Assembly: GCA_034667685.1 (NCBI GenBank)
Contig: JAXDQU010000021.1
Location: forward strand, 32,001 to 96,000
From: Thermoplasmata archaeon
GTDB lineage: Archaea > Thermoplasmatota > SW-10-69-26 > JACQPN01 > JAJPHT01
Length of the DNA: 64,000 bases
Direction of reading: 5' to 3'
Shown here: piece by piece, positions 1,870-63,601 of the stretch
How the letters are laid out: every line of letters starts with the position of its first letter
Position numbering within the stretch: the first letter of the stretch is position 1
Made by a program: the position numbers and the translations under genes
The notes under the pieces: model-generated
Told to the model about the DNA's origin: nothing
Database searches by the model: none
The model's input: only the letters and a program-made list of their open reading frames with translations

Positions 1870-2715
1870 GTGATGCGTCGGGTCGCCCTGTTGGCCCTCC
1901 TGCTCGCTGCCCCCGCCCTCCTCGCCGGCTGCTTCGGCGCCAGCGCCTCGCAGGTGGACGTCGCGCCCTACCTGCCGCTCAACGACGCGCAACCCGGCCG
2001 CGCCACCGAGGTCGCGCTCTTCCTGCGCAGCACGTCCTCGTTCAAGGAGCACTACGACGTGAAGCAGGACGGCATGCCCGCGGGCTGGACGTTCGAGCCC
2101 CACCCCAAGAGCCTCGACCTGGGCGGCGGCAAGACGTCGTTCCTCGTGGCGCGCGTGACGCCCGCGCTGGACGCCACGTACGGGCCGCACGCCTTCGACG
2201 TCATGGTGGGCGACACGCGCGCGACCGTCACGGTCAACGTGAAGGACCTCGGCCGCGAGCCGGCACGCGCGGGCGTCGGGGCGCAGGTCTACTACGTGCT
2301 CTTCGGCGACAACGGCACCGTGCTGGAGACCAACGAGCCCACGGTCAAGGACCAGCCCGGCGTCAAGCAGACGCCCCTCGACAACGGCACGCCCGACCTC
2401 ACGCCGCTGAAGGTCTACGTCGGCGGCCAGCGCGGCACGCCCCCGCCCGAGCCGTACAACTCCACCGGCTGCGCGGCGCCGCCGTGCTATCACCCTGTCA
2501 TCGAGGGTTTCGACGCGCGCCTGCGCGACGCGGGCGACGGCAACGGCATGGTCGCGGGCGACACGCTCGTCGCGCTCATCCCCAAGGAGCGCGCCTACAC
2601 CTACGCCGGCAACGAGCAGCACCCGCTCTACGGGCAGAACCTCAACTTCGTCATCCGCGTCGTGTCGGTGGACGACCTCGGGAAGTCGTGCCCGCTGCCC
2701 GTTTGCACGTCTTGA
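1870..2715 (+). CDS. Lipoprotein with Ig-like domain and C-terminal FKBP-type PPIase-like domain
   Basis: LLAGC lipobox; VIEGFD...GMVAGD...IPKERAY...HPLYGQNLNFVIRVVSV resembles the FKBP fold. Confidence 0.7.
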   Translation: MMRRVALLALLLAAPALLAGCFGASASQVDVAPYLPLNDAQPGRATEVALFLRSTSSFKEHYDVKQDGMPAGWTFEPHPKSLDLGGGKTSFLVARVTPALDATYGPHAFDVMVGDTRATVTVNVKDLGREPARAGVGAQVYYVLFGDNGTVLETNEPTVKDQPGVKQTPLDNGTPDLTPLKVYVGGQRGTPPPEPYNSTGCAAPPCYHPVIEGFDARLRDAGDGNGMVAGDTLVALIPKERAYTYAGNEQHPLYGQNLNFVIRVVSVDDLGKSCPLPVCTS

Positions 2716-2727
2716 GTCCTTCCCCCT

Positions 2728-2796
2728 CCAGCCACGGAGGACACAGAGGTCACAGAGGACAGTTCTTCCTTCGTCCTCTGTGTCCTCCGTGGCTGG
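2728..2796. repeat. Palindromic element, family A (CACAGAGGA-like 9-mer units)
   Basis: CCAGCCACGGAGGACACAGAGG...CCTCTGTGTCCTCCGTGGCTGG perfect 22-bp arms. Confidence 0.9.
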
Positions 2797-2843
2797 CCGC
2801 CAAGGGCGATACACCCAAGCGCGAAGGGAAAGCTCGCAGCATC

Positions 2844-3737: not shown

Positions 3738-3743
3738 TCGCAC

Positions 3744-3749
3744 TATAAA
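3744..3749 (+). promoter_or_regulatory. Putative TATA box for the ABC substrate-binding gene
   Basis: TATAAA preceded by an A-rich BRE-like run; AGGAGA SD-like site before ATG 3828. Confidence 0.45.
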
Positions 3750-8729: not shown

Positions 8730-11167
8730 CGCTGGGCGCGATCCTGCTGGCGCTCGCCGCGCTCCTCGCGCTCGCCGCGATGCTATCACCTGCCCGCTGG
8801 CGCCGCGCGCTGGCCGCCGCGCACGCGAGCGCCGTGCTCCTGGCCTTCGCGGTGATGCTCCTCGCGTTCCTCGGCACCGACCTCTCCTATGCCTACGTCT
8901 GGGACCACACGAACGCCAGCTATCCGTGGTCCTACAAGCTCGCGGGGCTCTGGGGCGGCGAGGAGGGCACGCTGCTCCTGTGGAACGCCGCGCTCGCCGC
9001 CTTCCTCGTGCCCGTGCTGCGCAAGGACCGCGTCGCGGGCGGCTTCCTCCTCGCCATGAGCGGCGGCCTCGCGCTCGTGAACCTGCTCGCGGGCGCGTTC
9101 GACGCCGCCGACCCCGCGCAGGTCGTCTTCGCGCCCGCGGGCCGCGGCCTCGCCGACGTGCTGCTCACGCCGCTCATGGTCATCCACCCGCCCGTGCAGT
9201 TCCTGGGCTACGCGCTCATGGCCGTGCCCGCCGCGTACATGCTCGCGGGCTGGTGGCGCCAGGATGTGCGCGGCGTCGCCCCGAGCGCCTACGCCTGGGC
9301 GCGCGTGGCGTGGCTCTTCGCGACGCTCGGCCTCGGCCTGGGCGCGCTCTGGGCCTACTACGTGCTATCGTTCGGCGGATACTGGGCGTGGGACCCCGTC
9401 GAGGTCTCGAACCTCCTGCCCTGGCTCGCGCTCACCGCGTTCCTCCACGCGGGCAAGGCGCTGCGCGACCGCGGCGACCACCCGCTCGCGGCGCCCACGC
9501 TCGCCTTCGGCGCGCACGCGCTCACGCTCTTCGCCACGTTCGCCACGCGCAGCGGCCTCTGGGTCAGCGTCCACGCCTTCACCGACCCGACGAACCGCTT
9601 CGAGCCCGACGCGGGCCTGCGCCTGCTCGCGATCCTCGCCGTCCACCCCGAGAGCCGGCTGCTCCTGGGCCTCCTGTCCGCGACGGTGCTATCAGGCTTC
9701 GCGCTCTTCGCCTGGAGCCACGCGAAGGGCATCCTCCTGCGCGCGTGGGCCGCCCTTCTCCTGCTGCTCGCGGGCATCGCGGCGCTCGACCCCGCCTTCG
9801 CGTGGGGGCTCGTCCTCCAGGCGGGCGCGATCGTCCCGTACGGCGCCGCGATCCTCCTGCTCGCGCTGCTGGGCGGCCCGCTCGCGCTCGCGTTCCTCGA
9901 CGCCGAGGAGGGGCGCCGCAAGCTCGCGCTCGACCCGCGGACTTTGCTATCAACGGCCGTCGTGCTCCTGGCGGTCGGCCTCGCCGTCGCGCTGCTCCTC
10001 GACCTCCAGGTCGTCAACGGCAGCGACCGCGCCCTCTTCGACGAACGCGCCCCCCTCGTCGTCATCCCGCTCGTGAGCGCGCTGACGCTCCTGCTGGCCC
10101 TCGGGCCGCTGGGCAAGCGCGGCGCGACGATTTTGGCGGGTGTGGGCCTCGCCGCGGGGCTCGCCGGCTTCGCCCTCTTCCCGCAGGCGCGCGTCGTCGC
10201 CCTCGCCGCCCCGCCCCTCGCCGCCGGCATCGCCGCCGCGCTGCTCAAGGTCGCGCAGGTGCAAGGCCCCGCAAGCGACGCGCGCCTCAAGGTCGCGGGC
10301 CTTTCCTCGGGCGCCGCCGCGCTGCTCGGCCTCGTCATGTGGGGCAACCCGCCCACGTGGGTCCTCCGCCTCGCCATCCCCCCAGGCGCCAGCCTCGCGC
10401 TCGGTTTCCTCGGAGTCGCGCTCGCGGCGCTGGGGCTCGCCGGCGCTTTCCTCGCCTGGCGCGGACGCGCGTTCGCATGGGCCCTCGCGGGCTCGCTCGC
10501 CGCCGCGCTCACGCTGGGCTACGGCGTCGGCCTCGTGCTGGGCCTCGTAGGCGCGGGGCTCGTCGCCATGCAGCGCGACCGCTTCGCCCCGCCCGCCGCT
10601 GCCCGCGCGCTGGGCCCGCGCCTGCGCGAGACGGGCATCTACGTCATCCACTTCGCGCTGCTCGTGGGGCTCCTGGGCTACGCCGCGAGCACGTACAGCC
10701 AGGACCGCGAGGTGTTCGCCGCCGAGCCGCCCGACGCCATCCTCCAGGCGGGCGGCCACTCGTTCGCGCTCCAGGGCGCGCAGCCCACGCTCGCCGAGGG
10801 CGGCATCCAGTCGCTCGTCGTCCCCATCCGCGTCGACGACGGCGGCGGCACCCCGCTGCGCTTCGGCTGGGCGGGCAACCACTACGCCGGCGCGCTGGAG
10901 GTCCGCCGCGCCCTCGCCGAGGACGTGTACGTCACGCCGCTCGCCTTCCACACGCCCGCCGGCTGGGTCGGCGCCAACAGCGTCGGCAGCATGGCGCCCG
11001 CCGGCCCGGTCGACGCCGTCTCGCTGAGCATCACCGTCCTGCCGCTCGTCGGCCTCGTCTGGAGCGGGCTCTGGGGCATGCTCCTCGGGATGCTGCTCGT
11101 GCTATCAGGCGTCGCGCTGGAGCGGCGCAGCGCTGAAATACCGCCGGGGGGTTCGCGCCGGACGTGA
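8726..11167 (+). CDS. ccmF: Cytochrome c biogenesis heme lyase CcmF
   Basis: WGGEEGTLLLW, HPP, GGYWAWDPVEVSNLLPWL...H, RSG..SVHAF. Confidence 0.92.
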   Translation: MTLGAILLALAALLALAAMLSPARWRRALAAAHASAVLLAFAVMLLAFLGTDLSYAYVWDHTNASYPWSYKLAGLWGGEEGTLLLWNAALAAFLVPVLRKDRVAGGFLLAMSGGLALVNLLAGAFDAADPAQVVFAPAGRGLADVLLTPLMVIHPPVQFLGYALMAVPAAYMLAGWWRQDVRGVAPSAYAWARVAWLFATLGLGLGALWAYYVLSFGGYWAWDPVEVSNLLPWLALTAFLHAGKALRDRGDHPLAAPTLAFGAHALTLFATFATRSGLWVSVHAFTDPTNRFEPDAGLRLLAILAVHPESRLLLGLLSATVLSGFALFAWSHAKGILLRAWAALLLLLAGIAALDPAFAWGLVLQAGAIVPYGAAILLLALLGGPLALAFLDAEEGRRKLALDPRTLLSTAVVLLAVGLAVALLLDLQVVNGSDRALFDERAPLVVIPLVSALTLLLALGPLGKRGATILAGVGLAAGLAGFALFPQARVVALAAPPLAAGIAAALLKVAQVQGPASDARLKVAGLSSGAAALLGLVMWGNPPTWVLRLAIPPGASLALGFLGVALAALGLAGAFLAWRGRAFAWALAGSLAAALTLGYGVGLVLGLVGAGLVAMQRDRFAPPAAARALGPRLRETGIYVIHFALLVGLLGYAASTYSQDREVFAAEPPDAILQAGGHSFALQGAQPTLAEGGIQSLVVPIRVDDGGGTPLRFGWAGNHYAGALEVRRALAEDVYVTPLAFHTPAGWVGANSVGSMAPAGPVDAVSLSITVLPLVGLVWSGLWGMLLGMLLVLSGVALERRSAEIPPGGSRRT

Positions 11168-12148: not shown

Positions 12149-12226
12149 TGGGACACGCACCCTGATATCACGCGCCGGACGACTGGCCACGGGCGGCCCG
12201 CCTTCGTCCACCCTGGTGCGGCTGCC

Positions 12227-15197: not shown

Positions 15198-17072
15198 ATT
15201 CCTCCGCCGTTTCCACGACGCCTCGTCCGCCGGCGCGATCCGCTCGGCCTCCTTCGCGGCGGCCGCCGGCTCCAGGATGGCCTTGGCCAGCTTGGGCCCG
15301 ATGCCGGGGACGCGGGCGAGGTCCTCCTCGCGGGCGCGCAGCACGTCGTCCACGCTGCCGAAGTGCGCGAGCAGGGCGCGCTTCTTGGCGGGGCCGAGGC
15401 CGGGCACGGCGTCGAGCGCGCTCTCGCGGAGCTGCTTGCGGCGGCTCGCCCTTTGATAGCTCACGGCGAAGCGGTGCGCCTCGTCGCGCACGCGCATCAG
15501 GGGGAGCAGCGCCTCGCTCGCGCGGCCCAGCTTGAGCGGACGGAGCAGGTTGGGCAGGTAGACCTCCTCCTCCTTCTTGGCGAGGCTCGCGAGCGGCTGC
15601 GCGTCGAGGCCCAGCTCGTGGAGCGCCTTGCGCGCGGCGTTCAATTGGCCCATGCCGCCGTCGATGAGCACGAGGTCGGGAAGGGGCTCGCCCTCGCGCT
15701 GGAGGCGGCTGTAGCGCCGGCGGACCACCTCCTCCATCGCGGCGAAGTCGTCGTTGCGCTCGGTGCTCACCTTGAAGCGGCGGTACTCGGAGGGCGTCGC
15801 GCGGCCGTCCACGAGTACGCTCATCGAGGCGACGACGCCGGTGCCGCCCAGGTGGCTGATATCAAAGCACTCGATGCGCCGCGGGAGCGCGGGCAGCTTG
15901 AGCGCGGCCTGGAGCGCGGCCAGCTCCTTGCGGTGCTCGTCCTCGCCGCGCTTGAGGCGCTCCTGGCCGAGGCGGAACTCGGCGTTGCGCTGCGCGTGGT
16001 CGAGCACCGCGCGCAGGTCGCCCTTCTGCGGCACGCGGATGTCCACCGGGCCGCCGCGCTTCTCCGCGAGCCAGGCCGCGAGGCTCTCCGACCCCGCGGG
16101 CAGGTCAGGAACGAGGACCTCGCGGGGCACGCTGGGCAGGTTCTCGTAGTAGCGCTGCACGAACTCCGCGAGCACCTCGGGCACCTCGTGCGCCTGCGCG
16201 TTCCGGAAGAAGAACGTCTCCTGGCCCGCGACCTGGCCGCGCCGCAGCAGCACGACGACGCCGGTCCACGCCGGGCCTTCGCGGTGCACGGTGAACACGT
16301 CGCGGTCCTCCTTGCCGCCCGCGAAGATGGCCTGGTGCTGGAGCGTCGTCGTCACCGCGGTCAGGCGATCGCGGAGCTGCGCGGCGCGCTCGAACTGCTC
16401 GTGCTGCGCGGCATCCTCCATCTGGCGCTGCAGCTCCTTCGTGAGGCGTTCCATGTCGCCCTTGAGGAACGCCTCGGCCTGCTGCGAGGCCTCCTGATAT
16501 CGCGCGATGGGATCGACGTCCGAGAGGCCCCGGTCCGCGGTCTTGCGGCGGCGCTCCTCCAGGTCGGTCATGCACGGCGCCCAGCAGAGCCGCATTTGAT
16601 AGCTCAGGCAGCCGCCCGGCAGCAGCTCCTTGCAGTCGCGCAGGCGGAACACCTCCTGCATCGTCTTCAGCGTCCGCCATGCCGCGCCCGCGTTGGGAAA
16701 CGGCCCGAAGAGCCGCCCGCGCGCCTTGGTGTCGCGCACGATGCGCGCTCGCGGGAACGGGTGGTCCGAGAGCAGGATGAACGGGTAGCGCTTGTCGTCG
16801 GTGAGCGTGACGTTGTAGCGCGGGTGGTTCGCCTTGATCAGCGAGCTTTCGAGGAGCAGCGCCTCCTTCTCGGAGGTCGTCAGGATCAGCTCGACGTTCG
16901 CCGCCTTCTCCAGCATGACCTCCTTGCGCGGGTCGAGGTTGCCGTGCCGGTAGCTCGACAGGCGCGTCCGGAGGCTGCCCGCCTTCCCGACGTACAGGAT
17001 GGTGCCCTGGTCGTCCTTGAAGAGATAGACGCCCGGCTCCTCCGGCACCGTGGCGAGGTCGACCTTGAGCAT
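15168..17072 (-). CDS. uvrC: Excinuclease ABC subunit C
   Basis: PGVYLF..YVGKA GIY-YIG domain, UVR coil, IECFDISH, DLVLIDGG, RDEAHRFA, HhH motifs. Confidence 0.96.
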   Translation of the reverse strand: MLKVDLATVPEEPGVYLFKDDQGTILYVGKAGSLRTRLSSYRHGNLDPRKEVMLEKAANVELILTTSEKEALLLESSLIKANHPRYNVTLTDDKRYPFILLSDHPFPRARIVRDTKARGRLFGPFPNAGAAWRTLKTMQEVFRLRDCKELLPGGCLSYQMRLCWAPCMTDLEERRRKTADRGLSDVDPIARYQEASQQAEAFLKGDMERLTKELQRQMEDAAQHEQFERAAQLRDRLTAVTTTLQHQAIFAGGKEDRDVFTVHREGPAWTGVVVLLRRGQVAGQETFFFRNAQAHEVPEVLAEFVQRYYENLPSVPREVLVPDLPAGSESLAAWLAEKRGGPVDIRVPQKGDLRAVLDHAQRNAEFRLGQERLKRGEDEHRKELAALQAALKLPALPRRIECFDISHLGGTGVVASMSVLVDGRATPSEYRRFKVSTERNDDFAAMEEVVRRRYSRLQREGEPLPDLVLIDGGMGQLNAARKALHELGLDAQPLASLAKKEEEVYLPNLLRPLKLGRASEALLPLMRVRDEAHRFAVSYQRASRRKQLRESALDAVPGLGPAKKRALLAHFGSVDDVLRAREEDLARVPGIGPKLAKAILEPAAAAKEAERIAPADEASWKRRRNPEPAFEPDS

Positions 17073-18384: not shown

Positions 18385-20751
18385 ATGATCGACGGCTTCA
18401 TCCTCGACGTGACGCCGGACCCGACGAAGGCGCAGATGGTCCTGTGGATCAAGACGCCGGAGGGCAGGGTCGTGCCGTGGCGCGCGCCGTTCACGCCGGC
18501 GTTCTACGTGGCGGGGCCGCAGCCCGCGCTCGACGAGCTCACGACGACGTTGCCGCTGCTGCCGGGCGTGGGCGCGCTCTCCTTCGAGGTGCGCAGGCTG
18601 GGTTTGGGCGGGCGGCGGCGCGTGCTGAAGGTGCCGGTGCGCGACACGAAGCGCCTGATGGCCGTCGCGAAGATGGTGGACGCGCGCGGCGGGCACCGCG
18701 ACCTGGACCTCTACGACGTGGACCTGCGCGCCAGCCAGCGCTTCTTCTTCGATCGCGGTCTCTTCCCCTTCGCGCGCGTGCGGGCCGGCGCCCAGGATGA
18801 TATCACGGCGCTGGACAAGGCGTGGGACCTGGAGTACGTGCGCCCGCCACTCTCGGAGGCGAGCCTGCGCGTGGAGGCGCGGCGGCGCGGGGCGCGCGTC
18901 GAGCCGGAGGATCCGGTGACGCGCGTGGTCCTCGGGCCGGGGGCCGGGAGCTTCGACAAGGAGGGCGAGCTCGTGCCCCATCCGGACGACGTCGCGCTCG
19001 AAGGCGACGAGGAGGACGTGCTGCGCGAGACGATGCGCCTCGTGCGCGAGCGCGATCCGGACGTGCTCTACACGTGGGGCGGCGACCGCTGGGGGCTGCG
19101 GCATCTTGCGGCGCGCGCCCAGGCGTTGGGCCTCGCGGGCTGGACGCTCGCGCGCGGGGAGGGCGAGGTGGCGCAGCCGCCCACGCGCAAGGCGCGGAGC
19201 TTCTTCCAGTACGGCCACATCCGCTACAGCGCGCCCACGTACCCGCTCGCGGGGCGCATGCACGTGGACCTGCGCGAGAGCTTCTTCTTCGGCGAGTCGA
19301 GGCTGGCGGGCGTCATCGACCTCTCGCGCCTCTCGGGCATCCCCGTCTCGGAGCTGGCGCGCCTGGAGGCCGGCACGGCGGTCACGGCCATCGAGATCGA
19401 CTTCGCGAAGCGCCAGGGGCGCCTGATCCCGTGGAAGAAGAACATGCCCGAGAAGCCCAAGACGCTGCGCAGCCTGGTGCGCGCGGACCGGGGCGGCTAC
19501 ATCTTCGACCCGCGCGTGGGCCTCTACGACGATGTCATCGAGCTGGACTTCGGGTCGCTCTACCCCGCGCTCATCGCGAACCACAACCTGGGCTCCGAGG
19601 CGATCCTGTGCGCGTGCTGCGACCCGGAGAAGCTGCCGCCCGAGCGCTTCGTGCCGCAGATCGGCTACCACGTCTGCGACAAGCCCGCCGTCGTGCCGCA
19701 GGTGCTCAAGAGCCTGGTCAAGCGGCGCATGGACATCAAGAAGATGCGCAACGCCGCAACGGACGAGGCGCTCTTCCACGAATACAAGGGGCGCGTGGAC
19801 GCGCTCAAGTGGCTCAACGTCGTCGCGTTCGGCTATCAGGGCTACAAGAACGCGCGCTTCGGCTGCATCGAGGCGCACGAGGCCACCTGCGCGTGGTCGC
19901 GCGAGGCGCTGCTCCGGGCCAAGGAGATCGCGCATGACGCGGGCTACGAGTTCCTGCACGGCATCGTCGACTCGCTCTGGCTGCAGAAGGTCGGGACCGC
20001 GAGCTGCTCCGCGGAGCAGCTCGCGGCGCGGGTCGAGGCCGAGGTCGGCATCCCCTTCGAGCCGCAGGGGCGCTACAAGTGGATCGTCTTCCTGCCCACG
20101 CGCTCGCACGACGCCCAGGGCGCTCCGCGGATCGGCGCGCCGAACCGCTTCTACGGCTGCTTCGACAAGGCCCCGCGCGTGCTGGGGCGCAGCCAGGCGG
20201 GGCAGCCCCTCGACGACATCGCCGGGGGCGCGATGAAGGTGCGCGGCGTCGAGTACCGGCAGGACTCGTGCCCGCCCGTCCTGGCCTGGATGCAGCACGA
20301 CATGCTGGAGGTCCTGGCGAAGGCCGACGACGCGCCGCAGTTCCGCGCGCGCATCCCGGAGGCGCTGGAGACGGCGAGGGGCTTCGCGCGGCGCGTGCGC
20401 GCGGGCGCGTGCGGGCCCGAGGAGCTCTGGATCGACCTGCGCGTCACGCGCGGCCTCGAGGGGCGCACGCAGATGAACCACGGCCACGCGGCGCTCAGGC
20501 AGCTCGCGGCCCAGGGGGAGGTCGTCGCGCCGGGCGATCGCGTGCGCTTCGTCATCACCGACGCCGCGAGCCGCGACCCGGCGCAGCGCGTGCGCGAGAA
20601 GCGGCTCGGGCCTCCCGACCATTATGATATCGAGGCCTACGAAACGCTGCTCGCGCGCGGCGTCGCGTCGCTGCTGCTGCCCTTCGGCTACGACGAGGCG
20701 AAGGCGCTGGCCGCGCTGCGCGGGGAGCCCATGCAGACGTGCCTGGCGTGA
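18385..20751 (+). CDS. polB2: Family B DNA polymerase, PolB2 subfamily
   Basis: DFGSLYP (motif A), LKWLNVVAFGYQG (motif B), HGIVDSLW replacing YGDTDS (motif C); degenerate exonuclease domain. Confidence 0.92.
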   Translation: MIDGFILDVTPDPTKAQMVLWIKTPEGRVVPWRAPFTPAFYVAGPQPALDELTTTLPLLPGVGALSFEVRRLGLGGRRRVLKVPVRDTKRLMAVAKMVDARGGHRDLDLYDVDLRASQRFFFDRGLFPFARVRAGAQDDITALDKAWDLEYVRPPLSEASLRVEARRRGARVEPEDPVTRVVLGPGAGSFDKEGELVPHPDDVALEGDEEDVLRETMRLVRERDPDVLYTWGGDRWGLRHLAARAQALGLAGWTLARGEGEVAQPPTRKARSFFQYGHIRYSAPTYPLAGRMHVDLRESFFFGESRLAGVIDLSRLSGIPVSELARLEAGTAVTAIEIDFAKRQGRLIPWKKNMPEKPKTLRSLVRADRGGYIFDPRVGLYDDVIELDFGSLYPALIANHNLGSEAILCACCDPEKLPPERFVPQIGYHVCDKPAVVPQVLKSLVKRRMDIKKMRNAATDEALFHEYKGRVDALKWLNVVAFGYQGYKNARFGCIEAHEATCAWSREALLRAKEIAHDAGYEFLHGIVDSLWLQKVGTASCSAEQLAARVEAEVGIPFEPQGRYKWIVFLPTRSHDAQGAPRIGAPNRFYGCFDKAPRVLGRSQAGQPLDDIAGGAMKVRGVEYRQDSCPPVLAWMQHDMLEVLAKADDAPQFRARIPEALETARGFARRVRAGACGPEELWIDLRVTRGLEGRTQMNHGHAALRQLAAQGEVVAPGDRVRFVITDAASRDPAQRVREKRLGPPDHYDIEAYETLLARGVASLLLPFGYDEAKALAALRGEPMQTCLA

Positions 20752-22863: not shown

Positions 22864-22990
22864 GCACCATGATATCAAACGAGGCGCCTTCCCGAGCCGA
22901 TCAAATGACGGAGAGATAGGGCTCCGCGAGAGAAGGCGTGTCACGCGGAACCACGATAGGCTCATGACCCGAAGCGGGGGTGGCGCCCCA

Positions 22991-24145
22991 ATGGTCGACC
23001 AGGCCCGCCGGATGCGCGACCTGCCCCTCTCGGGGATCCGCAAGATGTTCGAGATGGCGGGGAAGGACGCCATCAACTTCGGCATCGGGGAGCCTGACTT
23101 CCAGCCCCCGGGCTACGTCATCGACGCCTACCACCGCGCGATGCGCGAGGGCAAGAACAACTACGGCCCCAGCAGCGGCATCCCGGAGCTGCGCGCCGCC
23201 ATCGCGCAGAAGGAGCGCCACCGGCTTCCGGGCATCGACGCGAGCCACGTCATCGTGACGACCGGCTCGACCTCGGGGCTGTACGCGACCATCGCCTCGT
23301 TCATCGACCCGGGCGACGAGGTGCTCATGCCCAACCCGGGCTTCGTGCTCTACCGTCCGCACACGGTGCTCGTGGGCGGCGTGCCGGTCTACTACCCGCT
23401 GCGCAAGGAGTTCCACTACCGGCCGCGCGTGGACGACCTGCGCGCGCTCGTGACGCCGAAGACCAAGGCCATCATCGTCAACTCGCCCTCCAACCCGACC
23501 GGCGCGTGCCTGCGCGAGAAGGACGTCGACTACATCGTCGAGTTCGCGCGCGAGCACGGCCTGCTCCTGATCACCGACGAGGCGTACGACACGATCACGT
23601 ACGACCGCCCGCACGCCAGCTTCCTGGGCAAGTACGAGAGCACGGTCTACCTCAACACGTTCAGCAAGGCGTACGCGATGACCGGCTGGCGCATCGGCTA
23701 CATCGTCGCCGACCCCGCGCTCGCCGAGCCGATCAAGCGCATGAACTACCACCTGGTGGCCTGCCCCGCGACGCCCACGCAGTACGCGTGCCTCGCCGCG
23801 CTGGAGGGTCCGCAGGACTTCGTGCACGGCATGGTCCAGACGTTCAAGGAGCGCCGCGACCTCATCGTGAAGCTGGTCAAGGAGGTCCCCGGCCTCGACA
23901 TCGTGAAGCCCGAGGGCGCCTTCTACGCGTTCTGCTCCTACGAGCACGACGTGGACTGCAACGAGCTGGCGCTCCATCTGCTCAAGCGCCGCAACGTCGT
24001 CGTGACGCCCGGCTCCGCGTTCGGCTCGCTGGGCGCGGGCCACATCCGCCTCTCGTACTCGACCGACGAGGGCACGATCCGCGAGGGGATGGGTCGCATC
24101 CGCGCCGCCTTCGAAGAATTGGCCGCAGGCAAGAAGCTCTCCTGA
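22991..24145 (+). CDS. PLP-dependent class I aminotransferase (aspartate aminotransferase-like)
   Basis: GEPDF, NSPSNPTG, DEAY, SKAYAMTGWRIG. Confidence 0.92.
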   Translation: MVDQARRMRDLPLSGIRKMFEMAGKDAINFGIGEPDFQPPGYVIDAYHRAMREGKNNYGPSSGIPELRAAIAQKERHRLPGIDASHVIVTTGSTSGLYATIASFIDPGDEVLMPNPGFVLYRPHTVLVGGVPVYYPLRKEFHYRPRVDDLRALVTPKTKAIIVNSPSNPTGACLREKDVDYIVEFAREHGLLLITDEAYDTITYDRPHASFLGKYESTVYLNTFSKAYAMTGWRIGYIVADPALAEPIKRMNYHLVACPATPTQYACLAALEGPQDFVHGMVQTFKERRDLIVKLVKEVPGLDIVKPEGAFYAFCSYEHDVDCNELALHLLKRRNVVVTPGSAFGSLGAGHIRLSYSTDEGTIREGMGRIRAAFEELAAGKKLS

Positions 24146-24165
24146 TATCAGATCTTCTCGCCCCA

Positions 24166-37412: not shown

Positions 37413-39266
37413 TCAGTCCGTCGTCGCCCCGCCCGCCCCGAGGATCGTCGGGAGCCACAGGTCCGTGTCCCAGCGCGTCGGGGTGCCATCGCGGACGACG
37501 GTGGGCAGCGTGAACGTGGTCGCCTTGTCGCCGTAGGTCACGGTGACGGGCGCGGTCTGCGCGCTGGGGAGCACGTCGCTGCCGCCCTGCTCCTGGGTGA
37601 GCGCGAGGCGGATGCGCGAGCCGGGCAGGATGTGCGCGTCCAGGGGGTAGAACTCCATCTTGGCGACGATCGGCTGGCCGGGCGTGACGGTCTGCGGCTC
37701 CATGCCGCCATCCGCGTAGCGGAGGTCCATCTGCGCGCGGCCGATCCAGAGGTCGGTGCCGTTTGATAGCACCTCGTGCAGCTCGGCCCACAGCAGGCCG
37801 CCCGACGAGGTGGGCGTGACCGTGACGTGGAGCGTCGGCAGGCCTTCGATGCGCGTGCCGTTGGGGAGCGGGTCGGTCACGAACGAGAGGACGTTCTTCG
37901 TGCCCGGGAGCGAGGCGGGCGCGCCGGCGCCGGCCGTGGGCGCGTAGAGCATGTCGCTGCCCTCCTGCGCCTTCGCGACGAGCTTGCCGTCGGCCTCGGG
38001 GTGGAGCACGAGCGGCGTCGCGTCGAGCGGCGGGTAGGCGTTCTCCGGCTCGGTGGTCCAGTGGCCGTGCGTGTCCTCGACCTGCACCGCGGGGCCCGTG
38101 TCGGTCTTCGCGCCCTTCAGCTCCTGGTCGAACCAGCGCAGCAGCATCTCGGCCCAGTCCATGCGCACGTTGGGGTGCTCGCTGGCGCGGTCGGCGTGCA
38201 CGTGCGCCCACTCGCCCACGAGCATCTTCTTGGCGCCGGGGAACTGGTTGTAGATGTCGATGCCCTGCGAGGGCTTCACGTTCCAGTCCTGGAAGCCGTG
38301 GATGTAGAAGAGCGAGCCGTGGAAATTCTTCAGCGCGCGGTCGCGGTAGTCGCGGGCCGTCCAGTAGTCCGCCTGCGGGCCCATGTCGAGCGGCGTGCTG
38401 GTCTGGCCGCCGCCGGTCGCGTAGCCGTACGCGCCCTCGGGCGCGTGGAAGGGGCCGCTGAACGGATCGGGGCAGGCGACGCGCGCCGCGGTCTGCGGGT
38501 CGTCGGGCGTCGAGCCCATGCCCTGCGTCGCGCCGTAGCTGTAGTACGACTCGCCCAGGATCAGGCTGCGCGTCTCCGCCGACCCGTTGCGGAAGTGGAG
38601 CTGCTGCATGCTGTCGATGCCCTCGATGGGCACGATCGTCTTGAGGTACTTGTTGCCCGTCGTCGCGGCCTCCCACGCGGTGGTTCCGTCGTACGACTTG
38701 CCGATGACGGCGACCGCGCCGCTCGACCACGGAGCTTCGCCCAGGTACGTCAGGAGCACGTCGATGTCGTGCTGCTCGGTGGCGCCCAGGTAGTCGTTGC
38801 ACCCCTCGCTCTGGCCCGTGCCGCGCACACTGGCCTGCACGACCGCGTAGCCGTGCGGCACGAGGTTGTCGATGAGGAACTTGCCCAGCCGCACGTGCGC
38901 GGGCGTGCCGACGTCGTCGTCCAGCTCGCCGTAGTAGGGGCCGACGTCCATGAGCACGGGGACCTTGGTGCCGTTGGGCACGTCGGGGAGGTAGATGCCC
39001 AGCGCGAGCTTCACCCCGTCGAAGCTGGGCACCTTCACGACCTTCGCGGGCAGCACGGCGTAGGTCCCCTTCTCGACGGGGTGGCTCCAGTCGAGCGGCT
39101 TGCCCTCCGGCGTGTTGATATCAAACGCGGAGGCGGGCGGGAAGGGCAGGCCCGCGGTCGTGGCAGGCGTCGCGCCCAGCGCCGCGGCGGGCGGCTGCTT
39201 CGAGGCCGAGAGACAGCCCGCGACGAGGAGGAGCCCGACGAGGGCGAAGGCCAGGAAGGCGCGCAT
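37413..39266 (-). CDS. CocE/NonD (S15, Xaa-Pro dipeptidyl-peptidase-like) lipoprotein
   Basis: LVAGC lipobox; RGTGQSEG, GKSYDG nucleophile motif, HGFQDWNV. Confidence 0.9.
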   Translation of the reverse strand: MRAFLAFALVGLLLVAGCLSASKQPPAAALGATPATTAGLPFPPASAFDINTPEGKPLDWSHPVEKGTYAVLPAKVVKVPSFDGVKLALGIYLPDVPNGTKVPVLMDVGPYYGELDDDVGTPAHVRLGKFLIDNLVPHGYAVVQASVRGTGQSEGCNDYLGATEQHDIDVLLTYLGEAPWSSGAVAVIGKSYDGTTAWEAATTGNKYLKTIVPIEGIDSMQQLHFRNGSAETRSLILGESYYSYGATQGMGSTPDDPQTAARVACPDPFSGPFHAPEGAYGYATGGGQTSTPLDMGPQADYWTARDYRDRALKNFHGSLFYIHGFQDWNVKPSQGIDIYNQFPGAKKMLVGEWAHVHADRASEHPNVRMDWAEMLLRWFDQELKGAKTDTGPAVQVEDTHGHWTTEPENAYPPLDATPLVLHPEADGKLVAKAQEGSDMLYAPTAGAGAPASLPGTKNVLSFVTDPLPNGTRIEGLPTLHVTVTPTSSGGLLWAELHEVLSNGTDLWIGRAQMDLRYADGGMEPQTVTPGQPIVAKMEFYPLDAHILPGSRIRLALTQEQGGSDVLPSAQTAPVTVTYGDKATTFTLPTVVRDGTPTRWDTDLWLPTILGAGGATTD

Positions 39267-43181: not shown

Positions 43182-43231
43182 AGAAGGCGCGTTCACAATC
43201 TGATATCACCCTCGCAGGCTCCTCGGAGCAC

Positions 43232-55570: not shown

Positions 55571-57049
55571 CTAGGGATGCCGCGGCGCCGGCGGGAGCAC
55601 GCTGGCGAGCACCGCCGGGATCGCCTCCACCACGTCGGTCGCCACCAGGCCCCACGACCTCTGCGCCGCCGCCCGCTCCCCGGCCTCGCCCGTGAGGCGC
55701 GCCCCGACGCGCGCGGCGTCGAAGGGCGCCATGCCCTTGGCGAGGAGCGCGGCCACCACGCCCGAGAGCGCGTCGCCCGTGCCGCCCACGCTCATGGCGG
55801 GGTGGCCCGTGGCGTTGAGCTTCACGCGCTCGCCCTCCGCGATCGCGTCGATGGGCCCCTTGAGGAGCCACGTGCCGCCCAGCTCCCGCGCCGCCCCGAG
55901 CGCCGCCTTCTCGCGCCCGTCCGGATCGGTGGGCGCGTCGCGGCCGGTGAGCGTGCGGAACTCGCGCGCGTGGGGCGTGAGCACGGTGCGCGGCCCGACG
56001 AGATCCTTGCGCTCCGCGAGGGCGGTGAGCGCGTCCGCGTCGACCACCACCGGGAGCCCCTCGCGCGCCGCGCGTTCGAGCGCATGGTGGACGGCCTTCT
56101 GCGCCTGGCCGAAGAGCCCCGCGCCGGGCCCCACGACGACGCTGTCGGCCTTCTTGAGCCACGTGTTGAGCGTGACGCGGTTGGCGGGGTCGTCGAAGTT
56201 GAGGTCGTCGCCGTTGAGCGGCCGCACGACCACGTTGGGCGAGTAGGACGCCACGACCTGCCAGGCGCGCTGCGGCGTGAGCACGATCGCGAGGTCCGCG
56301 CCCGCCCGCAGCGCCGCCATCGCGCACACCGCCGGCGCGCCCGTGTAGGGGCCCCCGCCAATGACGAGCACGATGCCGCCCTCGCCCTTGTGCTGCTCCC
56401 ACCGTCCCTGCGGATAGAGCAGGTACTCGCCCGGCCCCGTGTAGCGCGCCGCGTCGCGCGGGATGCCGATGTCCACGACGCGGACGCGCCCGCACGTCGC
56501 CTCGCTCATCCCGTCCTTGATATCATGGAACGTGACCGTCTCGCGCGGGACGTAGGTCGTCGCGCCGCCGAAGCCCGTGGGCACGTCCACCGCGACGACG
56601 CGCGCCTTCGTCCGTGATAGCACCTCGACGATGCCGCGGTACGGCTCGCGCAGCTCGCCCGAGAGGCCCGCGCCCAGGAGCGCGTCGAGCACGACCGGCC
56701 CGCGCGCGAGCGCACGCTCGACGTCGGCGGCCGTCGCGTTGAACTTCACCGGGACCTGCGGCGGAAGCTGGCCGAACGCGCCGCGCGCCAGCGCCGTCCG
56801 CCACCCGCCGGGCGAGACGGGCGTGACGACCTCGACCGCGATGCGCTGCGCCGCGAGGTGCCGCGCCGCCACGAGCCCGTCGCCCCCGTTGTTGCCCGGC
56901 CCCGCGAGGACGAGCACGCCGGCCTGTTGCGCGAGCGGCGCGCAGTGCTCGGCCAACGCGCGCCCCGCGTTCTCCATGAGCTGCGCGGTGGGCACGCCCA
57001 GCGCCTCGGCGTTCAGGTCCAGGACGCGGACCTCCGGGAGCGGGATCAC
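55571..57049 (-). CDS. nnr: Bifunctional NAD(P)H-hydrate epimerase/dehydratase
   Basis: LMENAG, GPGNNGGDG, DALLGAG, VDVPTG; HKG, VVDADAL, TPHAREF, GGTGD. Confidence 0.93.
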   Translation of the reverse strand: MIPLPEVRVLDLNAEALGVPTAQLMENAGRALAEHCAPLAQQAGVLVLAGPGNNGGDGLVAARHLAAQRIAVEVVTPVSPGGWRTALARGAFGQLPPQVPVKFNATAADVERALARGPVVLDALLGAGLSGELREPYRGIVEVLSRTKARVVAVDVPTGFGGATTYVPRETVTFHDIKDGMSEATCGRVRVVDIGIPRDAARYTGPGEYLLYPQGRWEQHKGEGGIVLVIGGGPYTGAPAVCAMAALRAGADLAIVLTPQRAWQVVASYSPNVVVRPLNGDDLNFDDPANRVTLNTWLKKADSVVVGPGAGLFGQAQKAVHHALERAAREGLPVVVDADALTALAERKDLVGPRTVLTPHAREFRTLTGRDAPTDPDGREKAALGAARELGGTWLLKGPIDAIAEGERVKLNATGHPAMSVGGTGDALSGVVAALLAKGMAPFDAARVGARLTGEAGERAAAQRSWGLVATDVVEAIPAVLASVLPPAPRHP

Positions 57050-58790: not shown

Positions 58791-59522
58791 GTGGCCCGCG
58801 TCGCCATCCTCGGCGGCACCGGCGCCGCCTTCGGCGACCTCGAGCGCATCCTCGTCGAGACGCCCTTCGGCGACGTCGAGGTCCTGCGCGACCGTGATAT
58901 CATCCTTCTCCCGCGCCACGGCACGCAGCGCCTGCCCGCGCACCGCGTCAACCACAAGGCCAATGTCGAGGCGCTGGCCCGGTGCAAGGTGGACGCCGTC
59001 CTCGCGCTCAACAGCGTGGGCGCGCTCCACGACGCGATCCCCACCGGCGCGCTCCTCGTCCCGCACGACCAGCTCGACATGCGCTCGCGCCAGAGCTTCT
59101 TCGACGACATGCCGGTCCACGTCGCCTTCGATGAGCCCTACTGCGCCGACCTGCGCGCCCTTCTGACCGCAGCCGCGCCAAGCGCCATCCCGCGCGGCGT
59201 CTACGCCGCCACCGAAGGCCCGCGCCTGGAGACGCCCGCCGAGGTGCGCGCGCTGCGGACGCTGGGCGGCGACGTGGTGGGCATGACCGGCGCGCCCGAA
59301 GCCGCCCTCGCCCGCGAGCGCGGCCTCTGCTACGCGAGCCTCTGCCTCGTCACCAACCCCGCCGCGGGCGTCGGCGGCGCGCGCGTGAGCGCCACGCAGA
59401 TCCGCGACGCGGCCGCCAAGCTCCACCACGAAGCCCTGCGCGCCGCGCGCGAAGCCGCCGGGCGGGTGCGCGCGCCGCGGACGTGCGCGTGCGCGCGGGC
59501 GGCGCGCGACGGGAGCATCTGA
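58791..59522 (+). CDS. mtnP: MTAP-family purine nucleoside phosphorylase
   Basis: ILGGTG, TPFG, PRHG, NSVGAL, EGPRLETPAE, VGMT, VTN. Confidence 0.9.
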   Translation: MARVAILGGTGAAFGDLERILVETPFGDVEVLRDRDIILLPRHGTQRLPAHRVNHKANVEALARCKVDAVLALNSVGALHDAIPTGALLVPHDQLDMRSRQSFFDDMPVHVAFDEPYCADLRALLTAAAPSAIPRGVYAATEGPRLETPAEVRALRTLGGDVVGMTGAPEAALARERGLCYASLCLVTNPAAGVGGARVSATQIRDAAAKLHHEALRAAREAAGRVRAPRTCACARAARDGSI

Positions 59523-61185: not shown

Positions 61186-61202
61186 TGTCGGGGCGCGGCC
61201 GC

Positions 61203-61676
61203 CTAGGCCGGCGGTCCTTGTCGGGCGCGGCGCAGCTCCTCGTTGAGCGCGTTGAGCCCGCGCGCGAAGGCCGCGGCGCGGTTCGCGTCGGCGCGCCGTT
61301 CGTCGAGGGCGCCGCGCAGCGCTTCGACGAAGGCGGCGGTGGAGATCGGCTTCGTGAGGAAGCGGTCGACGCGCGCGTCGTTGATGCCGCGGATGGCGGC
61401 GTCCTGCTCGGGGTAGGCGGTGAGGAGGATGCGCACGGTGGTGGGCCGCTTGGCGCGGACGTGCTCGAGGAACGCGATGCCGTCCTCGCCGGGCATGCGG
61501 TAGTCGGAGACGGTCAGGTCGTACTCGTGGCGGCCGACGAGGGCCATGGCTTCGGCGGCGTCGCGCGCCATGTCGACGCTGACCTCGGGCATCGCGCGGC
61601 GGATCACGGCGCCCAGGGCGGCAAGGATCTGCGGCTCGTCGTCGACCAGCAGGATGCGAGGGTGGGTGGCGCTCAT
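61203..61676 (-). CDS. Response regulator receiver protein
   Basis: ILLVDDEP, SDYRMPGEDG, LLTAY, FLTKP. Confidence 0.92.
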   Translation of the reverse strand: MSATHPRILLVDDEPQILAALGAVIRRAMPEVSVDMARDAAEAMALVGRHEYDLTVSDYRMPGEDGIAFLEHVRAKRPTTVRILLTAYPEQDAAIRGINDARVDRFLTKPISTAAFVEALRGALDERRADANRAAAFARGLNALNEELRRARQGPPA

Positions 61677-61741
61677 GCTGCTCGGTCTTGGACGTTGGAG
61701 CACTTGGCGGAGCGTCCTCCGGCCGCGGACGGACAGCCCGG

Positions 61742-63601
61742 CTAACGAGACAGGTTCAGGGTCGCGAGGACCGGCGCGTGGTCGCTGGCCGCCACGACGT
61801 CCGCACTGCGGATCACGTCCACGGACCGGGCGTCCCATTCGGCGCTCATCCAGACCTGGTCGATGCGCTCCTGCGGGTCGAAGCTGGCGTACGTGTTCCC
61901 GGCGGTGTCGTTGGCGCCGTGGCCGCTGGCGACCCATGCGTCGCGGAAGGGCGAGGCCGCGAGCGTGCCGTAGACGTGGCCGCCGTCCTCGTCCTCGCAC
62001 GTCGTGGGGCACGAGTTGAAGTCGCCCACCAGGAGGCGCGGTCCGTTCCGCGTGGCGGCGCGGGCGAGGAGCGCGTCGATCTGCGCGGCGCGGTCGTTGA
62101 TGCCGAGGCCGAAGTGGACGCCGTAGAGCCAGACGTCGCGCCCGGCCACGGTGAGGCGCGTCTCGGTGACGTAGCGGTTGTCCTTCGTCGTGGGGAGCGC
62201 GAACCAGCTCGTCTCCTGCACGGGCGCGCGTGATAGCACCGCGCCGGCGAACCCTTCGGCCGAGGTGGCCGGGCCGTAGACGACGTGATAGCCCAGCCGG
62301 TCCGCGAGGATGCGCAAGAGGTCCAGGTTGCCGCTCGACATGCGCGTCGCGTCGTACTCCTGCGCCACGAGCACGTCGGGCTTCGCATCGCCGACGATCT
62401 TCACGAAGATCCCCGGATCGAGCGCGCCCGCGTTGTCGAACCCCTGGTGCAGGTTGAACGTCATCACGCGCAGCGTCGGCGACTGCGTCTCGGGCACCGC
62501 CGCCACGGGCAGCGCGAGGGGCGCCACCGCGAGGACCACGAGGAGCGCGGCCACGATCGGCCCGGCGCGCGGCGTGGGCAGCCGGGCGGCGAGGCGCGGC
62601 GCGGCGAGGAGGGCGGGGATCGCCACGAGGAGGACCGCGAGCGGCGCGACCCAGGCCTGGTCGCCCTTCCAGAGCGCGCTTCCGGGCACGTAGGCGAAGA
62701 CGAACCCGAACACGGCGAAGAACTGGAGGAGGATCATGACGAGCGCGGTCAGGCCCATCGTGCGCGCGCTGGCGGCGAAGGGGCGCGACGCGAGCGGGCC
62801 CACGAGCGCGACGAGGTCGGCGCCCATCGCGAGCTGCGCGAGGAACGCGCCCAGCGGGACCAGCGAGCTGTGGAGGAGCGCGTGGTCGAAGGCGAAGAGG
62901 AGCGCAGCGCCATTGAGCGCCAGGAGCGGCGCGCGGGGGGCCAGCCGCGGGGCCAGGAGCGCGCCCGCCGCGAGGCCCAGCGCGTCGGCGACGAGCACGA
63001 GCTTGAGATCAGCCTCGTTCCAGCGCGCGAGGCCGAACGGGTTGGCGAGGATCGCGGTCTCCAGGAAGAGCCACGCGCCAAGCCCGAGCGCGGCGAACCG
63101 GAGGCGGGGCGCTTCGCCTGCCGGAGCGGGCCGGAGCGGCCACGCGAGCGCGACGAGAAGGACCGCCAGGGGCGCCACGAGGACCGGGCTCGCGAGCGTG
63201 GCGTCCCACGAGCGCCCCCACGCGACGAGCGCGACGTCGGCCGCGAAGCCCGCGACGATGCCGCACGCGACGAGCGTATCGGCACCAGAGAGGAGCGCCG
63301 CGAGCGTCACGAGGGCGGCGAGCGTCGCGAGGCCCGAGACGACGAGGTAGGCGTTGCCCGCGGGGACCCACGGCAGCGCGATGCGGCCCAGCGCGAGCGC
63401 CACGGCGCCGGCGCGCAGCCAGGGGCGCGCCTCGCCGCGCAGCGCCACGGGCAGCACCAGCAGGAGCGGAAGCGCGGCGGTCCACGTGAGGCCCAGCGCG
63501 TTGAGGTTGCCGTTGTAGACGCCCGAGACGAAGGCGCGCAGCGCGCCGGCGAAGAGCATCGTGGCGAGCAAGGCCGCGGCGGGGCGGCGCCAATCCTGCA
63601 T
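61742..63601 (-). CDS. Multi-TM protein with C-terminal endonuclease/exonuclease/phosphatase domain (CWH43-like)
   Basis: ~11 TM segments; MTFNLHQG, QE, VH, GDFN, RIDQ, SDH. Confidence 0.88.
   Translation of the reverse strand: MQDWRRPAAALLATMLFAGALRAFVSGVYNGNLNALGLTWTAALPLLLVLPVALRGEARPWLRAGAVALALGRIALPWVPAGNAYLVVSGLATLAALVTLAALLSGADTLVACGIVAGFAADVALVAWGRSWDATLASPVLVAPLAVLLVALAWPLRPAPAGEAPRLRFAALGLGAWLFLETAILANPFGLARWNEADLKLVLVADALGLAAGALLAPRLAPRAPLLALNGAALLFAFDHALLHSSLVPLGAFLAQLAMGADLVALVGPLASRPFAASARTMGLTALVMILLQFFAVFGFVFAYVPGSALWKGDQAWVAPLAVLLVAIPALLAAPRLAARLPTPRAGPIVAALLVVLAVAPLALPVAAVPETQSPTLRVMTFNLHQGFDNAGALDPGIFVKIVGDAKPDVLVAQEYDATRMSSGNLDLLRILADRLGYHVVYGPATSAEGFAGAVLSRAPVQETSWFALPTTKDNRYVTETRLTVAGRDVWLYGVHFGLGINDRAAQIDALLARAATRNGPRLLVGDFNSCPTTCEDEDGGHVYGTLAASPFRDAWVASGHGANDTAGNTYASFDPQERIDQVWMSAEWDARSVDVIRSADVVAASDHAPVLATLNLSR

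Follow-up and report, generated by a model that had tools for sequence, protein, structure and literature searches.

Short DNA words that are hyper-iterated within a genome are known from few bacterial groups, namely the palindrome HIP1 (highly iterated palindrome 1, GCGATCGC) of cyanobacteria and the uptake sequences of Neisseriaceae and Pasteurellaceae, and whether drive or selection maintains them is still debated. Here, a word of this kind is described in an archaeon. It is an octamer, TGMTATCA (M: A or C) with the perfect form TGATATCA, which was noticed in a window of 64,000 nucleotides of a Thermoplasmata genome (GCA_034667685.1, contig JAXDQU010000021.1, positions 32,001 to 96,000; G000:C21:32001-96000 in our numbering). 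The phenomenon is real and very strong, it concerns an AT-rich word in a GC-rich genome, and it is the first iterated-palindrome- or uptake-sequence-like word found in an archaeon in the literature searched. The initial annotation of the window could not match the octamer to a described archaeal motif, and our literature searches agree, as they found neither an archaeal iterated palindrome nor an archaeal uptake sequence. The archaeal word adds an independent and young case that is confined to one genus.

The uptake signal sequences (USS) of Pasteurellaceae and the DNA uptake sequences (DUS) of Neisseriaceae resemble this word in being short and lineage-restricted, in occurring in hundreds to thousands of copies, in several reading frames and on both strands, and in having enriched variants that deviate by one letter, which is also found here. 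The ratio of palindrome to variant differs between the species of the archaeal genus, which is reminiscent of uptake-sequence dialects. USS and DUS occur at a density of about 1 per kb, and the archaeal word is sparser with about 1 per 5 kb. They are 9-12 nt long and non-palindromic, whereas this word is an 8-bp quasi-palindrome, and their hosts are naturally competent bacteria with ComEC and DprA, whereas the host here is an archaeon from a family in which these genes were found in 0/9 genomes. Passages of PMC2817400 describe the tripeptides encoded by uptake sequences as 'approximately doubled' and the sequences as missing from genes without homologues in relatives, i.e., from recently acquired genes; both features are seen here as well. 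Passages of the same article state that USS favour frames with preferred codons, whereas the archaeal word needs rare codons in every frame.

HIP1 and the alternate HIPs share with the archaeal word that they are palindromic octamers and the top 8-mer of their genome. Excerpts of the study by Xu et al. give an over-representation of HIP1 of 15- to 300-fold and argue for selection (PMC5861425), and the excess found here, 47-94x, lies inside this range. Dispersal over coding and non-coding DNA, spread by point substitutions and tolerance of deviations at the first and last letter, as set out in sections of PMC4390886, are further common features. However, HIP1 is GC-rich and phylum-wide, whereas this word is AT-rich, in a genome of 71% GC, and confined to one genus. 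HIP1 has the cognate methyltransferases DmtA and DmtC, whereas none that matches was found here in the families searched. Moreover, HIP1 sites are reported, in the excerpts of this literature used here, to be conserved between genomes and quasi-periodic at 10-90 kb, whereas here, in the sequences aligned, exact sites do not appear to be shared beyond the control, and short-range spacing looks Poisson-like. HIP1 was described to raise transformation efficiency in a methylation-dependent manner (summary of bioRxiv 10.1101/2024.09.10.611283) and a role as uptake sequence was proposed (summary of PMC13756078).

Two further groups of signals were considered. Chi is likewise an over-represented 'self'-DNA word of 5-8 nt that is written into genes, but it is asymmetric, polar with replication and read by RecBCD/AddAB. 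Chi is only modestly over-represented, and to our knowledge archaea possess neither RecBCD nor AddAB. A Chi-like signal or a polar signal like KOPS (FtsK orienting polar sequences) does not fit here, as the main form is palindromic and, on a draft in which replichores are not defined, the strand bias of the variant follows gene orientation and codon constraints. The sites parS, Noc NBS (Noc-binding site), SlmA SBS (SlmA-binding site) and matS are similar in being short scattered palindromes read by dimeric proteins. They are present in tens of copies with regional patterns; a parS-, Noc- or matS-like site is a misfit with about 700 Poisson-scattered copies that fill about half of their coding contexts. 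The proposal in the initial annotation of a genome-wide signal at the DNA level was thus sustained for a signal of the HIP1 or DUS kind that is written through rare codons, and was given up for its parS-like and Chi-like versions.

Genome-wide excess and form of the word

G000, the metagenome-assembled draft genome that contains the window, comprises 3,481,428 bases (3.48 Mb) in 124 contigs, the longest of 167 kb, with 71.1% GC and 99% completeness. The word is present throughout this genome: TGATATCA has 378 copies against a zero-order expectation of 4.0, a ratio that no other 8-mer with 40 or more copies reaches, and TGCTATCA and TGATAGCA have 173 and 156 copies against 9.9 expected for each. 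Within the window, TGATATCA occurs at exactly ten and TGCTATCA/TGATAGCA at exactly nine positions (0.04 and 0.16 expected, respectively), as had been annotated, and 0/100 dinucleotide-preserving shuffles reach ten or nine copies; sites with at most one mismatch to TGATATCA number 25, against 2.55 expected. The excess was then set against shuffles in which synonymous codons are permuted within each gene, so that the protein and the per-gene codon usage are kept. TGATATCA has 304 copies in genes compared with 5.5 in 30 such shuffles (sd 1.9, maximum 9) and 6.4 over 40 shuffles, and TGCTATCA with its complement has 302 copies in genes compared with 9.0. These two rank first and second among all 65,536 8-mers (40 codon-preserving shuffles), and TGATATCA is the sole enriched palindromic 8-mer in coding DNA. 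Control words are flat in genes under the same shuffles, with 47 vs 33.8 copies for TGACATCA, 32 vs 23.5-24.6 for CGATATCG and 5 vs 13.1 for GGATATCC. The two outcomes named in the initial annotation as refuting it, a lack of enrichment over such shuffles and an absence from the remaining genome, were thus both contradicted. Restriction avoidance does not fit, as it would yield the opposite pattern: the word is enriched, and GATATC outside of the 8-mer is neutral.

One might suspect that base composition, codon usage, repeated gene families or the assembly produced the excess artificially, since the draft was assembled from a metagenome and is split into 124 contigs, and since a maximal-order Markov expectation built from the word's own 7-mers would 'explain' the excess. 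We regard the probability of such an origin as negligible. The excess withstands both dinucleotide shuffles and shuffles preserving amino acids and codon usage, the flanks of the sites are not conserved apart from codon periodicity, the same excess recurs in four further assemblies of the genus, and over the pieces listed, contigs of two distinct soil studies do not differ from the window. All four sources are thereby excluded.

The word acts at the level of DNA, as it uses several reading frames and both strands and also occurs at gene junctions and in intergenic DNA. The 378 palindromes comprise 295 genic sites in the frame nnT-GAT-ATC-Ann (Asp-Ile), seven genic sites in the frame nTG-ATA-TCA, 45 sites straddling a gene end and 31 intergenic sites, and the frame that reads TGA is used by none of them. 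Among the 76 palindromes not inside genes, 14 form exact TGA(stop)-TATC-ATG(start) junctions of neighbouring genes, in which TGATATCATG supplies the stop TGA, four letters and the start ATG (e.g., G000:C6:22781, C111:8588 and C124:69689), and 42 genes are listed with an intergenic site at most 160 nt upstream. On the coding strand, TGCTATCA is read as nTG-CTA-TCA in 200 cases (Leu-Ser, with two of the rarest codons) and as TGC-TAT-CAn in 30, its complement as nnT-GAT-AGC-Ann in 66, and a further form as AGC-TAT-CAn in 100. On the coding strand, TGCTATCA is enriched by 30x and its complement by 59x, so that a reader would see double-stranded DNA and neither RNA nor codons; the coding-strand preference of the variant, 234:68, matches the codon-based expectations of 7.6 and 1.1 and follows gene orientation and codon constraints. 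An RNA-level motif was rejected on the basis of this enrichment in both orientations, and an RNA or peptide signal in general is excluded, since the word also lies outside genes and occupies several frames and both strands. A role as off-frame 'hidden stop' was rejected as well, as TGACATCA has the same two TGA triplets and yet is not enriched.

Single-letter scans revealed which deviations are tolerated. A change from A to C at position 3, equivalent to T to G at position 6, is accepted; positions 1 and 8 are partly tolerant, with the order T > A > C > G at position 1, and positions 2, 4, 5 and 7 tolerate no change. Accordingly, 1103 of the 1195 TATCA pentamers in genes lie within NGMTATCA. 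The doubly variant TGCTAGCA has three genomic copies; it contains CTAG, and its rarity is probably due to the strong avoidance of CTAG by the genome. CTAG itself has 768 copies in G000 against a zero-order expectation of about 9,000. As to the flanks, an extension toward TTTGATATCAAA had been suggested and turned out to be weak: the 10-mer TTGATATCAA is present at 20/378 sites, and besides codon periodicity there is only a mild avoidance of C before and of G after the word. The eight one-mismatch variants annotated in the window between 3352 and 62286 are real (TGCTATCG, three copies of TGATAGCT, two of CGATAGCA, AGCTATCA and TGATAGCC), but they are one letter off the TGCTATCA-type word and not off the palindrome.

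Coding contexts, protein changes and turnover between species

The baseline codon usage of the genome is 8.4% for GAT, 8.3% for TAT, 0.6% for CTA and 1.2% for TCA. Where the encoded amino acids permit the word, it is filled in at much higher rates: 295/649 contexts (45%) for nnT-GAT-ATC-Ann, 30/32 (94%) for TGC-TAT-CAn (Cys-Tyr-Gln/His), 100/145 (69%) for AGC-TAT-CAn (Ser-Tyr-Gln/His), 46/165 (28%) for CGA-TAT-CAn, 200/1114 (18%) for nTG-CTA-TCA and 66/500 (13%) for nnT-GAT-AGC-Ann. The Asp-Ile contexts followed by A distribute over the four combinations of the preceding letter and the Asp codon as 295 (T, GAT), 67 (non-T, GAT), 34 (T, GAC) and 236 (non-T, GAC). The whole word is thus favoured and half-made words hardly at all, i.e., there is strong epistasis between the letters. 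Occupancy is 0.38 in the gene quartile with the highest GC at third codon positions vs 0.54-0.60 in the others, and it is even along genes. The Ile codon ATA accounts for 0.2% of Ile codons, and the word frames that require ATA are nearly empty (9/261 and 1/824 contexts). T followed by A is avoided across codon junctions in this genome: before A-starting codons other than ATC and AGC, GAT is used in 74/5527 cases (1.3%), and its share before C-, G- or T-starting codons is about 8.5%.

The effect extends to the proteins. An A-starting codon follows 38% of Asp-Ile pairs vs 15-24% for nine control dipeptides, and compared with the proteome, Thr, Ile, Lys and Asn are about doubled as the residue after Asp-Ile, Gly is halved and Ala is reduced to about two thirds. 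The tripeptides DII, DIT, DIK and DIN are in excess by 2.8x, 2.2x, 2.2x and 1.9x, respectively, and DII has the highest over-representation of all tripeptides with at least 40 copies in the proteome. The word has therefore reshaped both codons and amino acids. As it runs against the composition of the genome, its cost is plainly visible in rare codons, changed amino acids and tripeptide frequencies. For annotation purposes, the word accounts for most TAT, CTA and TCA codons and provides a sharp marker to tell native from acquired DNA.

Phylogenetically, the word is restricted to one genus. Compared with the 378 copies of TGATATCA in G000, the four other species of the genus have 111, 141, 210 and 53 copies, four sister genera have 2, 3, 5 and 2, and the rest of the order has 0-7. 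TGCTATCA, counted on both strands, has 72, 229, 151 and 63 copies in the species of the genus other than G000 vs 5 in G007, and it is more numerous than the palindrome in G002. Raw counts of TGATATCA are higher in distant members of the phylum with 42-53% GC, where they represent an excess of a few-fold only. Among the 8-mers in 400 kb of G003, the palindrome likewise ranks first (26 copies vs 0.37 expected), and none of the three words is present in 266 kb of G007, which has 71.3% GC. Five species with an about six-fold range in density, beside sister genera nearly devoid of the word, offer a natural series in which a reader gene could be sought by phyletic profiling and the fixation bias measured in soil metagenomes.

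Individual sites turn over between species. In the alignment of G000 with G003 (254 kb, 78% identity), 5/32 G000 palindromes are shared; the unshared ones read CGACGTCG, CGACATCA, TGATGTCG and similar in G003, and TGCTATCA sites there mostly read TGCTCTCG. None of 20 aligned G000 sites carries the motif in G007. Among gapless sites, 5/28 are identical in G003 vs 28% of control 8-mers, and 0/18 are identical in G007; the 5/28, though below the control, far exceeds the expectation for neutral, saturated AT-rich third positions. The number of letters by which a motif 8-mer deviates from its orthologue is 2.6-2.8 in G003 vs 1.5 for control 8-mers, and 3.7-4.3 vs 2.0 in G007, so that, judged from the aligned sequences, the divergence at motif sites appears to be directional change and not conservation. 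Asp-Val or Asp-Leu frequently stands at the orthologous place (9/24 in G003, 3/8 in G007). Asp-Ile is kept in G003 at 11/24 motif vs 69/115 non-motif sites and in G007 at 2/8 vs 15/34, both being trends in small samples. New sites arise by transitions, transversions and amino acid changes, and in resident DNA of high GC content the accumulation of the word is ongoing.

These data bear on the proposal that the word is a context-specific mutational footprint, e.g., of the deamination of methylated cytosine (GACA to GATA), and thus a sink without any reader. It receives some support from the orthologous states in G003 and G007, many of which belong to the family YGAYRTCR (CGACGTCG, CGACATCA, TGATGTCG) and can be converted to the word by transitions alone. 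However, TGCTATCA sites replace TGCTCTCG or TGCTCTCC, which needs a C-to-A transversion, the half-made TGACATCA is not enriched (see the counts above), and the four combinations of Asp-Ile contexts reveal co-operativity and not independent hits. Moreover, GAT is depleted to 1.3% before other A-starting codons, CGA-TAT-CAn takes up a rare A-ending Arg codon in 46/165 contexts, and sites are missing from a sister genus that matches in GC content and in its conserved methyltransferases. The C-to-T footprint, offered as alternative in the initial annotation, was therefore rejected, since sites arise also by transversions and amino acid changes and since intermediates are not enriched; a context-specific mutational footprint without a reader is very improbable as a whole.

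Distribution along the chromosome and possible readers

The three words are scattered in a Poisson-like manner, with a coefficient of variation (CV) of the spacing of 1.00 and a variance/mean of 0.98 for the counts per 10 kb. These values concern short-range spacing, within contigs of at most 167 kb. Spacings below 100 bp are somewhat scarce (0.8% vs 2.4% expected), and the occupancy of a context is 0.45-0.57 across six classes of distance to the nearest other site. The sites are thus independent of one another. Their density depends on base composition, with 0.33-0.36 sites per 10 kb where GC is below 68% vs 2.2 in the bulk, and Asp-Ile occupancy rises with local GC from 12% (<68% GC) to 50-64% in the core and 61-64% in the most GC-rich DNA. 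This AT-rich word is therefore rarest in the most AT-rich and probably acquired DNA and commonest in the most native DNA. Two low-GC contigs are poor in the word, C118 (81 kb, 67.4% GC) with 7 sites vs 16.5 expected and C42 (63 kb, 66.4% GC) with 3 vs 12.7; both are probably acquired islands.

One explanation for such a distribution is that selection maintains every copy as a binding site for an abundant protein that acts chromosome-wide, each copy conferring a small independent benefit, with no drive linked to transfer. The protein might be a nucleoid or SMC-type organiser, or the palindrome might serve as a 'self' mark that halts end-resection or a defence nuclease in a Chi-like manner. This is conceivable but in our view rather doubtful. 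In its favour, recognition extends over the whole word with tolerated changes in a near-symmetric pattern, the word is absent from low-GC islands as a 'self' mark would be, and sharing with G003 is frequent where the context is kept (5 shared among 11 Asp-Ile-conserved sites). In addition, selection and a nucleoid role were concluded for HIP1 in the excerpts of Xu et al. (PMC5861425), and the summary of the preprint on transformation suggests a Chi-like effect of HIP1 (10.1101/2024.09.10.611283). On the other hand, there is neither even spacing nor repulsion between sites (CV 1.0, occupancy flat with distance), exact sites are shared below the control (5/28 gapless vs 28%), and a palindrome cannot give polarity. 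About half of the contexts are filled and proteins are altered, which is far beyond any density requirement. Chi of E. coli shows a few-fold excess that is weaker than that of the archaeal word, which also counts against selected binding sites.

The recognition of the whole word, the independence of the sites, the half-saturation of contexts, the doubled tripeptides, the absence from acquired DNA, the lineage restriction and the rapid turnover point instead to a reading of the drive or uptake type. We hold at about even confidence that the word is targeted by a reader of double-stranded DNA specific to this lineage, with a fixation bias at each site, by drive or by an equivalent advantage. In this scheme, a factor recognising all of the 8-bp quasi-palindrome, in the simplest case a symmetric dimer, would have been gained or retuned in the ancestor of the Thermoplasmata genus. 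Alleles or DNA molecules bearing the word would then be kept or incorporated preferentially through uptake, exchange, recombination or repair, and each mutation that completes a word would gain a raised chance of fixation wherever coding permits. The process would constitute a per-site molecular drive, or an equivalent additive advantage per site, and not a set of positioned functional sites. We infer the existence of a protein reader in this scheme, as well as its identity and the step, i.e., uptake, recombination, repair or protection, at which the bias would act.

A more far-reaching and tentative idea, to which we assign a rather low probability, is that TGATATCA might be the first archaeal 'self-DNA' tag, enhancing uptake or recombination and read by a non-bacterial exchange machinery in these wall-less soil Thermoplasmata. 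If so, it would reveal sequence-selective genetic exchange in an uncultured archaeal genus and show that drive of the uptake type can push an AT-rich word to half-saturation against the codon bias of a 71% GC genome. More generally, if the reader belongs to a system of DNA exchange or repair, the word would provide a first handle on such a system in Thermoplasmata.

A different route to whole-word enrichment is a by-product of sequence-directed repair linked to a methyltransferase, as in Elhai's HIP model: an orphan methyltransferase would mark the word or its GATATC core, and a nickase directed by methylation or by the site would resolve mismatches nearby toward the strand that completes the site. 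Sections of PMC4390886 propose this for HIP1 and the alternate HIPs, each with a methyltransferase of fitting specificity. G000 has conserved orphan-like methyltransferases and the mismatch endonuclease NucS, one-off variants are biased to the outer positions 1 and 8 and to position 3, and a ratchet of this type would naturally give epistasis for the full word. We nevertheless consider the repair bias unlikely, as no methyltransferase family searched tracks the genus, as Vsr is missing from G000 at 99% completeness with a weak, below-cut-off match for a MutS-like protein, and as NucS is present in 7/9 genomes, including sister genera without the word. Furthermore, repair of the Vsr type drives T:G to C:G, whereas here six of eight letters are A or T in a genome of 71% GC.

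The methyltransferases were inspected family by family. PF01555 (N6/N4) and PF00145 (C5) have orthologues that span the whole family or order, other C5 genes vary from species to species, N6_Mtase (PF02384) gave weak matches only, and the D12 methyltransferase family (PF02086) gave one weak match, in G000 only and on the low-GC contig C118. Methyltransferases that track the word, as in HIPs, were not found within these four families, whose conserved enzymes are of unassigned specificity. The weak D12 motif on C118 lies in an open frame of 1090 aa that the other genomes of the genus lack. A 314-aa C5 cytosine methyltransferase is encoded at G000:C63:5378-6319 and has orthologues in 14/15 genomes of the order (44-92% identity); comparison of these orthologues showed no genus-specific change and no indels in the variable region. 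Two C5 methyltransferase genes of G003, G003:C8:39295-40792 and G003:C27:116672-118609, each adjoin a gene for a mismatch endonuclease of the Vsr type.

Several results weigh against a drive exerted through a dedicated reader. The search among 11 Pfam families revealed no genus-specific gene for it, bearing in mind that these are family searches that give no proof of absence and that several genomes are 72-88% complete; likewise, none of the methyltransferase families PF02086, PF01555, PF00145 and PF02384 has a member that is in all five species and absent outside. ComEC and DprA were found in none of the nine genomes of the family, Vsr has no match in G000, and a VirD4-like coupling protein gave weak matches in 3/9 genomes with no pattern. 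MutS domain V gave weak matches only (27.6-33.6 bits in 5/5 genomes searched), three of them at or just above the cut-off of 30.2 bits and that of G000 below it. We know of no transformation or sequence-selective DNA exchange in this lineage, and recent exchange between G000 and G003 was not seen, as no 500-nt window in the 254 kb aligned exceeds 94.6% identity. Per-site functional selection would yield the same static pattern as drive, and the two cannot be told apart. A pure DNA-word model does not fit every frame either: Ala-Ile contexts of the form nnT-GCT-ATC-Ann are filled in 4/1009 cases compared with 13-94% in four frames, and GCT-ATC makes up 12/5170 of Ala-Ile pairs. This emptiness is explained in part by the avoidance of T-A at codon junctions and by contexts that are created by amino acid change in the other frames. 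Finally, genes were called by an ad hoc codon-usage log-odds caller (3435 genes, 86% coding) that was validated with Pfam on the window genes only, and the orthologue comparisons cover 400 kb of the ~3.8 Mb of G003 and 266 kb of the ~3.1 Mb of G007, with 254 kb and 68 kb aligned.

Sites in the window and accompanying observations

The gene names given in the initial annotation were borne out at the domain level by Pfam, with matches for 10/12 window proteins scanned, and so was the statement that the word is written through rare codons. The domains of AglB and PolB are in keeping with an archaeal host. Six of the ten palindromes are genic, all in the frame nnT-GAT-ATC-Ann, and the nine variants are read on the coding strand as nTG-CTA-TCA in eight cases and as TGC-TAT-CAC in one. 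The genic palindromes lie in uvrC (15857..15864; gene 15168-17072, minus strand), in the gene of a family-B DNA polymerase (18798..18805; 18385-20751, plus), in an S15 peptidase gene (39116..39123; 37413-39266, minus), in a gene without Pfam match (40084..40091; 39500-41599, minus), in nnr (56518..56525; YjeF_N and Carb_kinase, 55571-57049, minus) and in the gene of a PNP_UDP_1 phosphorylase (58895..58902; 58791-59522, plus). The uvrC site is read as TTT-GAT-ATC-AGC (Phe-Asp-Ile-Ser); G001 and G004 have TTC-GAC-ATC-AGC, and most related metagenome contigs have G at 15861 and 15864 (four runs compared, among the differences listed).

Four palindromes are located outside of genes, three of which are intergenic according to our gene calls. 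The site at 12163..12170 lies 123 nt beyond the end of a plus-strand gene and 64 nt ahead of the stop of a minus-strand gene, that at 22870..22877 separates two divergent genes, whose starts are 158 nt and 121 nt away, and that at 43201..43208 lies 110 nt beyond the end of an M28 peptidase gene (41702-43093). The fourth, at 24143..24150, supplies with its first three letters the TGA stop of an aminotransferase gene (22991-24145, plus).

As to TGCTATCA, five sites lie on the plus strand. The site at 2485..2492 in the plus-strand gene 1873-2715 is read as TGC-TAT-CAC (Cys-Tyr-His), and the same word is present at this place in G003 and G002. A plus-strand gene for a cytochrome-c assembly protein (8726-11167) carries four sites: 8781..8788 (ATG-CTA-TCA, Met-Leu-Ser), 9687..9694 (GTG-CTA-TCA, kept in G003), 9945..9952 (TTG-CTA-TCA, CTTCTCTCC in G003) and 11100..11107 (GTG-CTA-TCA). 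The remaining four lie on the minus strand, which is the coding strand of the respective gene, and all use the frame nTG-CTA-TCA, namely 30126..30133 in aglB (29184-31865; AglB/STT3), 37764..37771 in the S15 peptidase gene, 56615..56622 in nnr, which thus holds two sites, and 62231..62238 in an Exo_endo_phos gene (61742-63601).

Two observations go beyond the word. The over-represented tripeptides of the proteome are dominated by Asn-X-Thr sequons (NAT 543 vs 216, NGT 396 vs 167, NLT 326 vs 126), an excess that fits heavy N-glycosylation, and AglB is encoded in the window at 29184-31865. Furthermore, codon-preserving shuffles revealed that several GC-rich palindromes are 3-6x under-represented in coding DNA, namely CCTCGAGG (171 vs 589), GCTCGAGC (84 vs 322), CCAGCTGG (47 vs 202), CCCCGGGG (29 vs 177), GGAGCTCC (68 vs 261) and GGGGCCCC (49 vs 156); with the cores CTCGAG, CAGCTG and GAGCTC, this looks like restriction-site avoidance.

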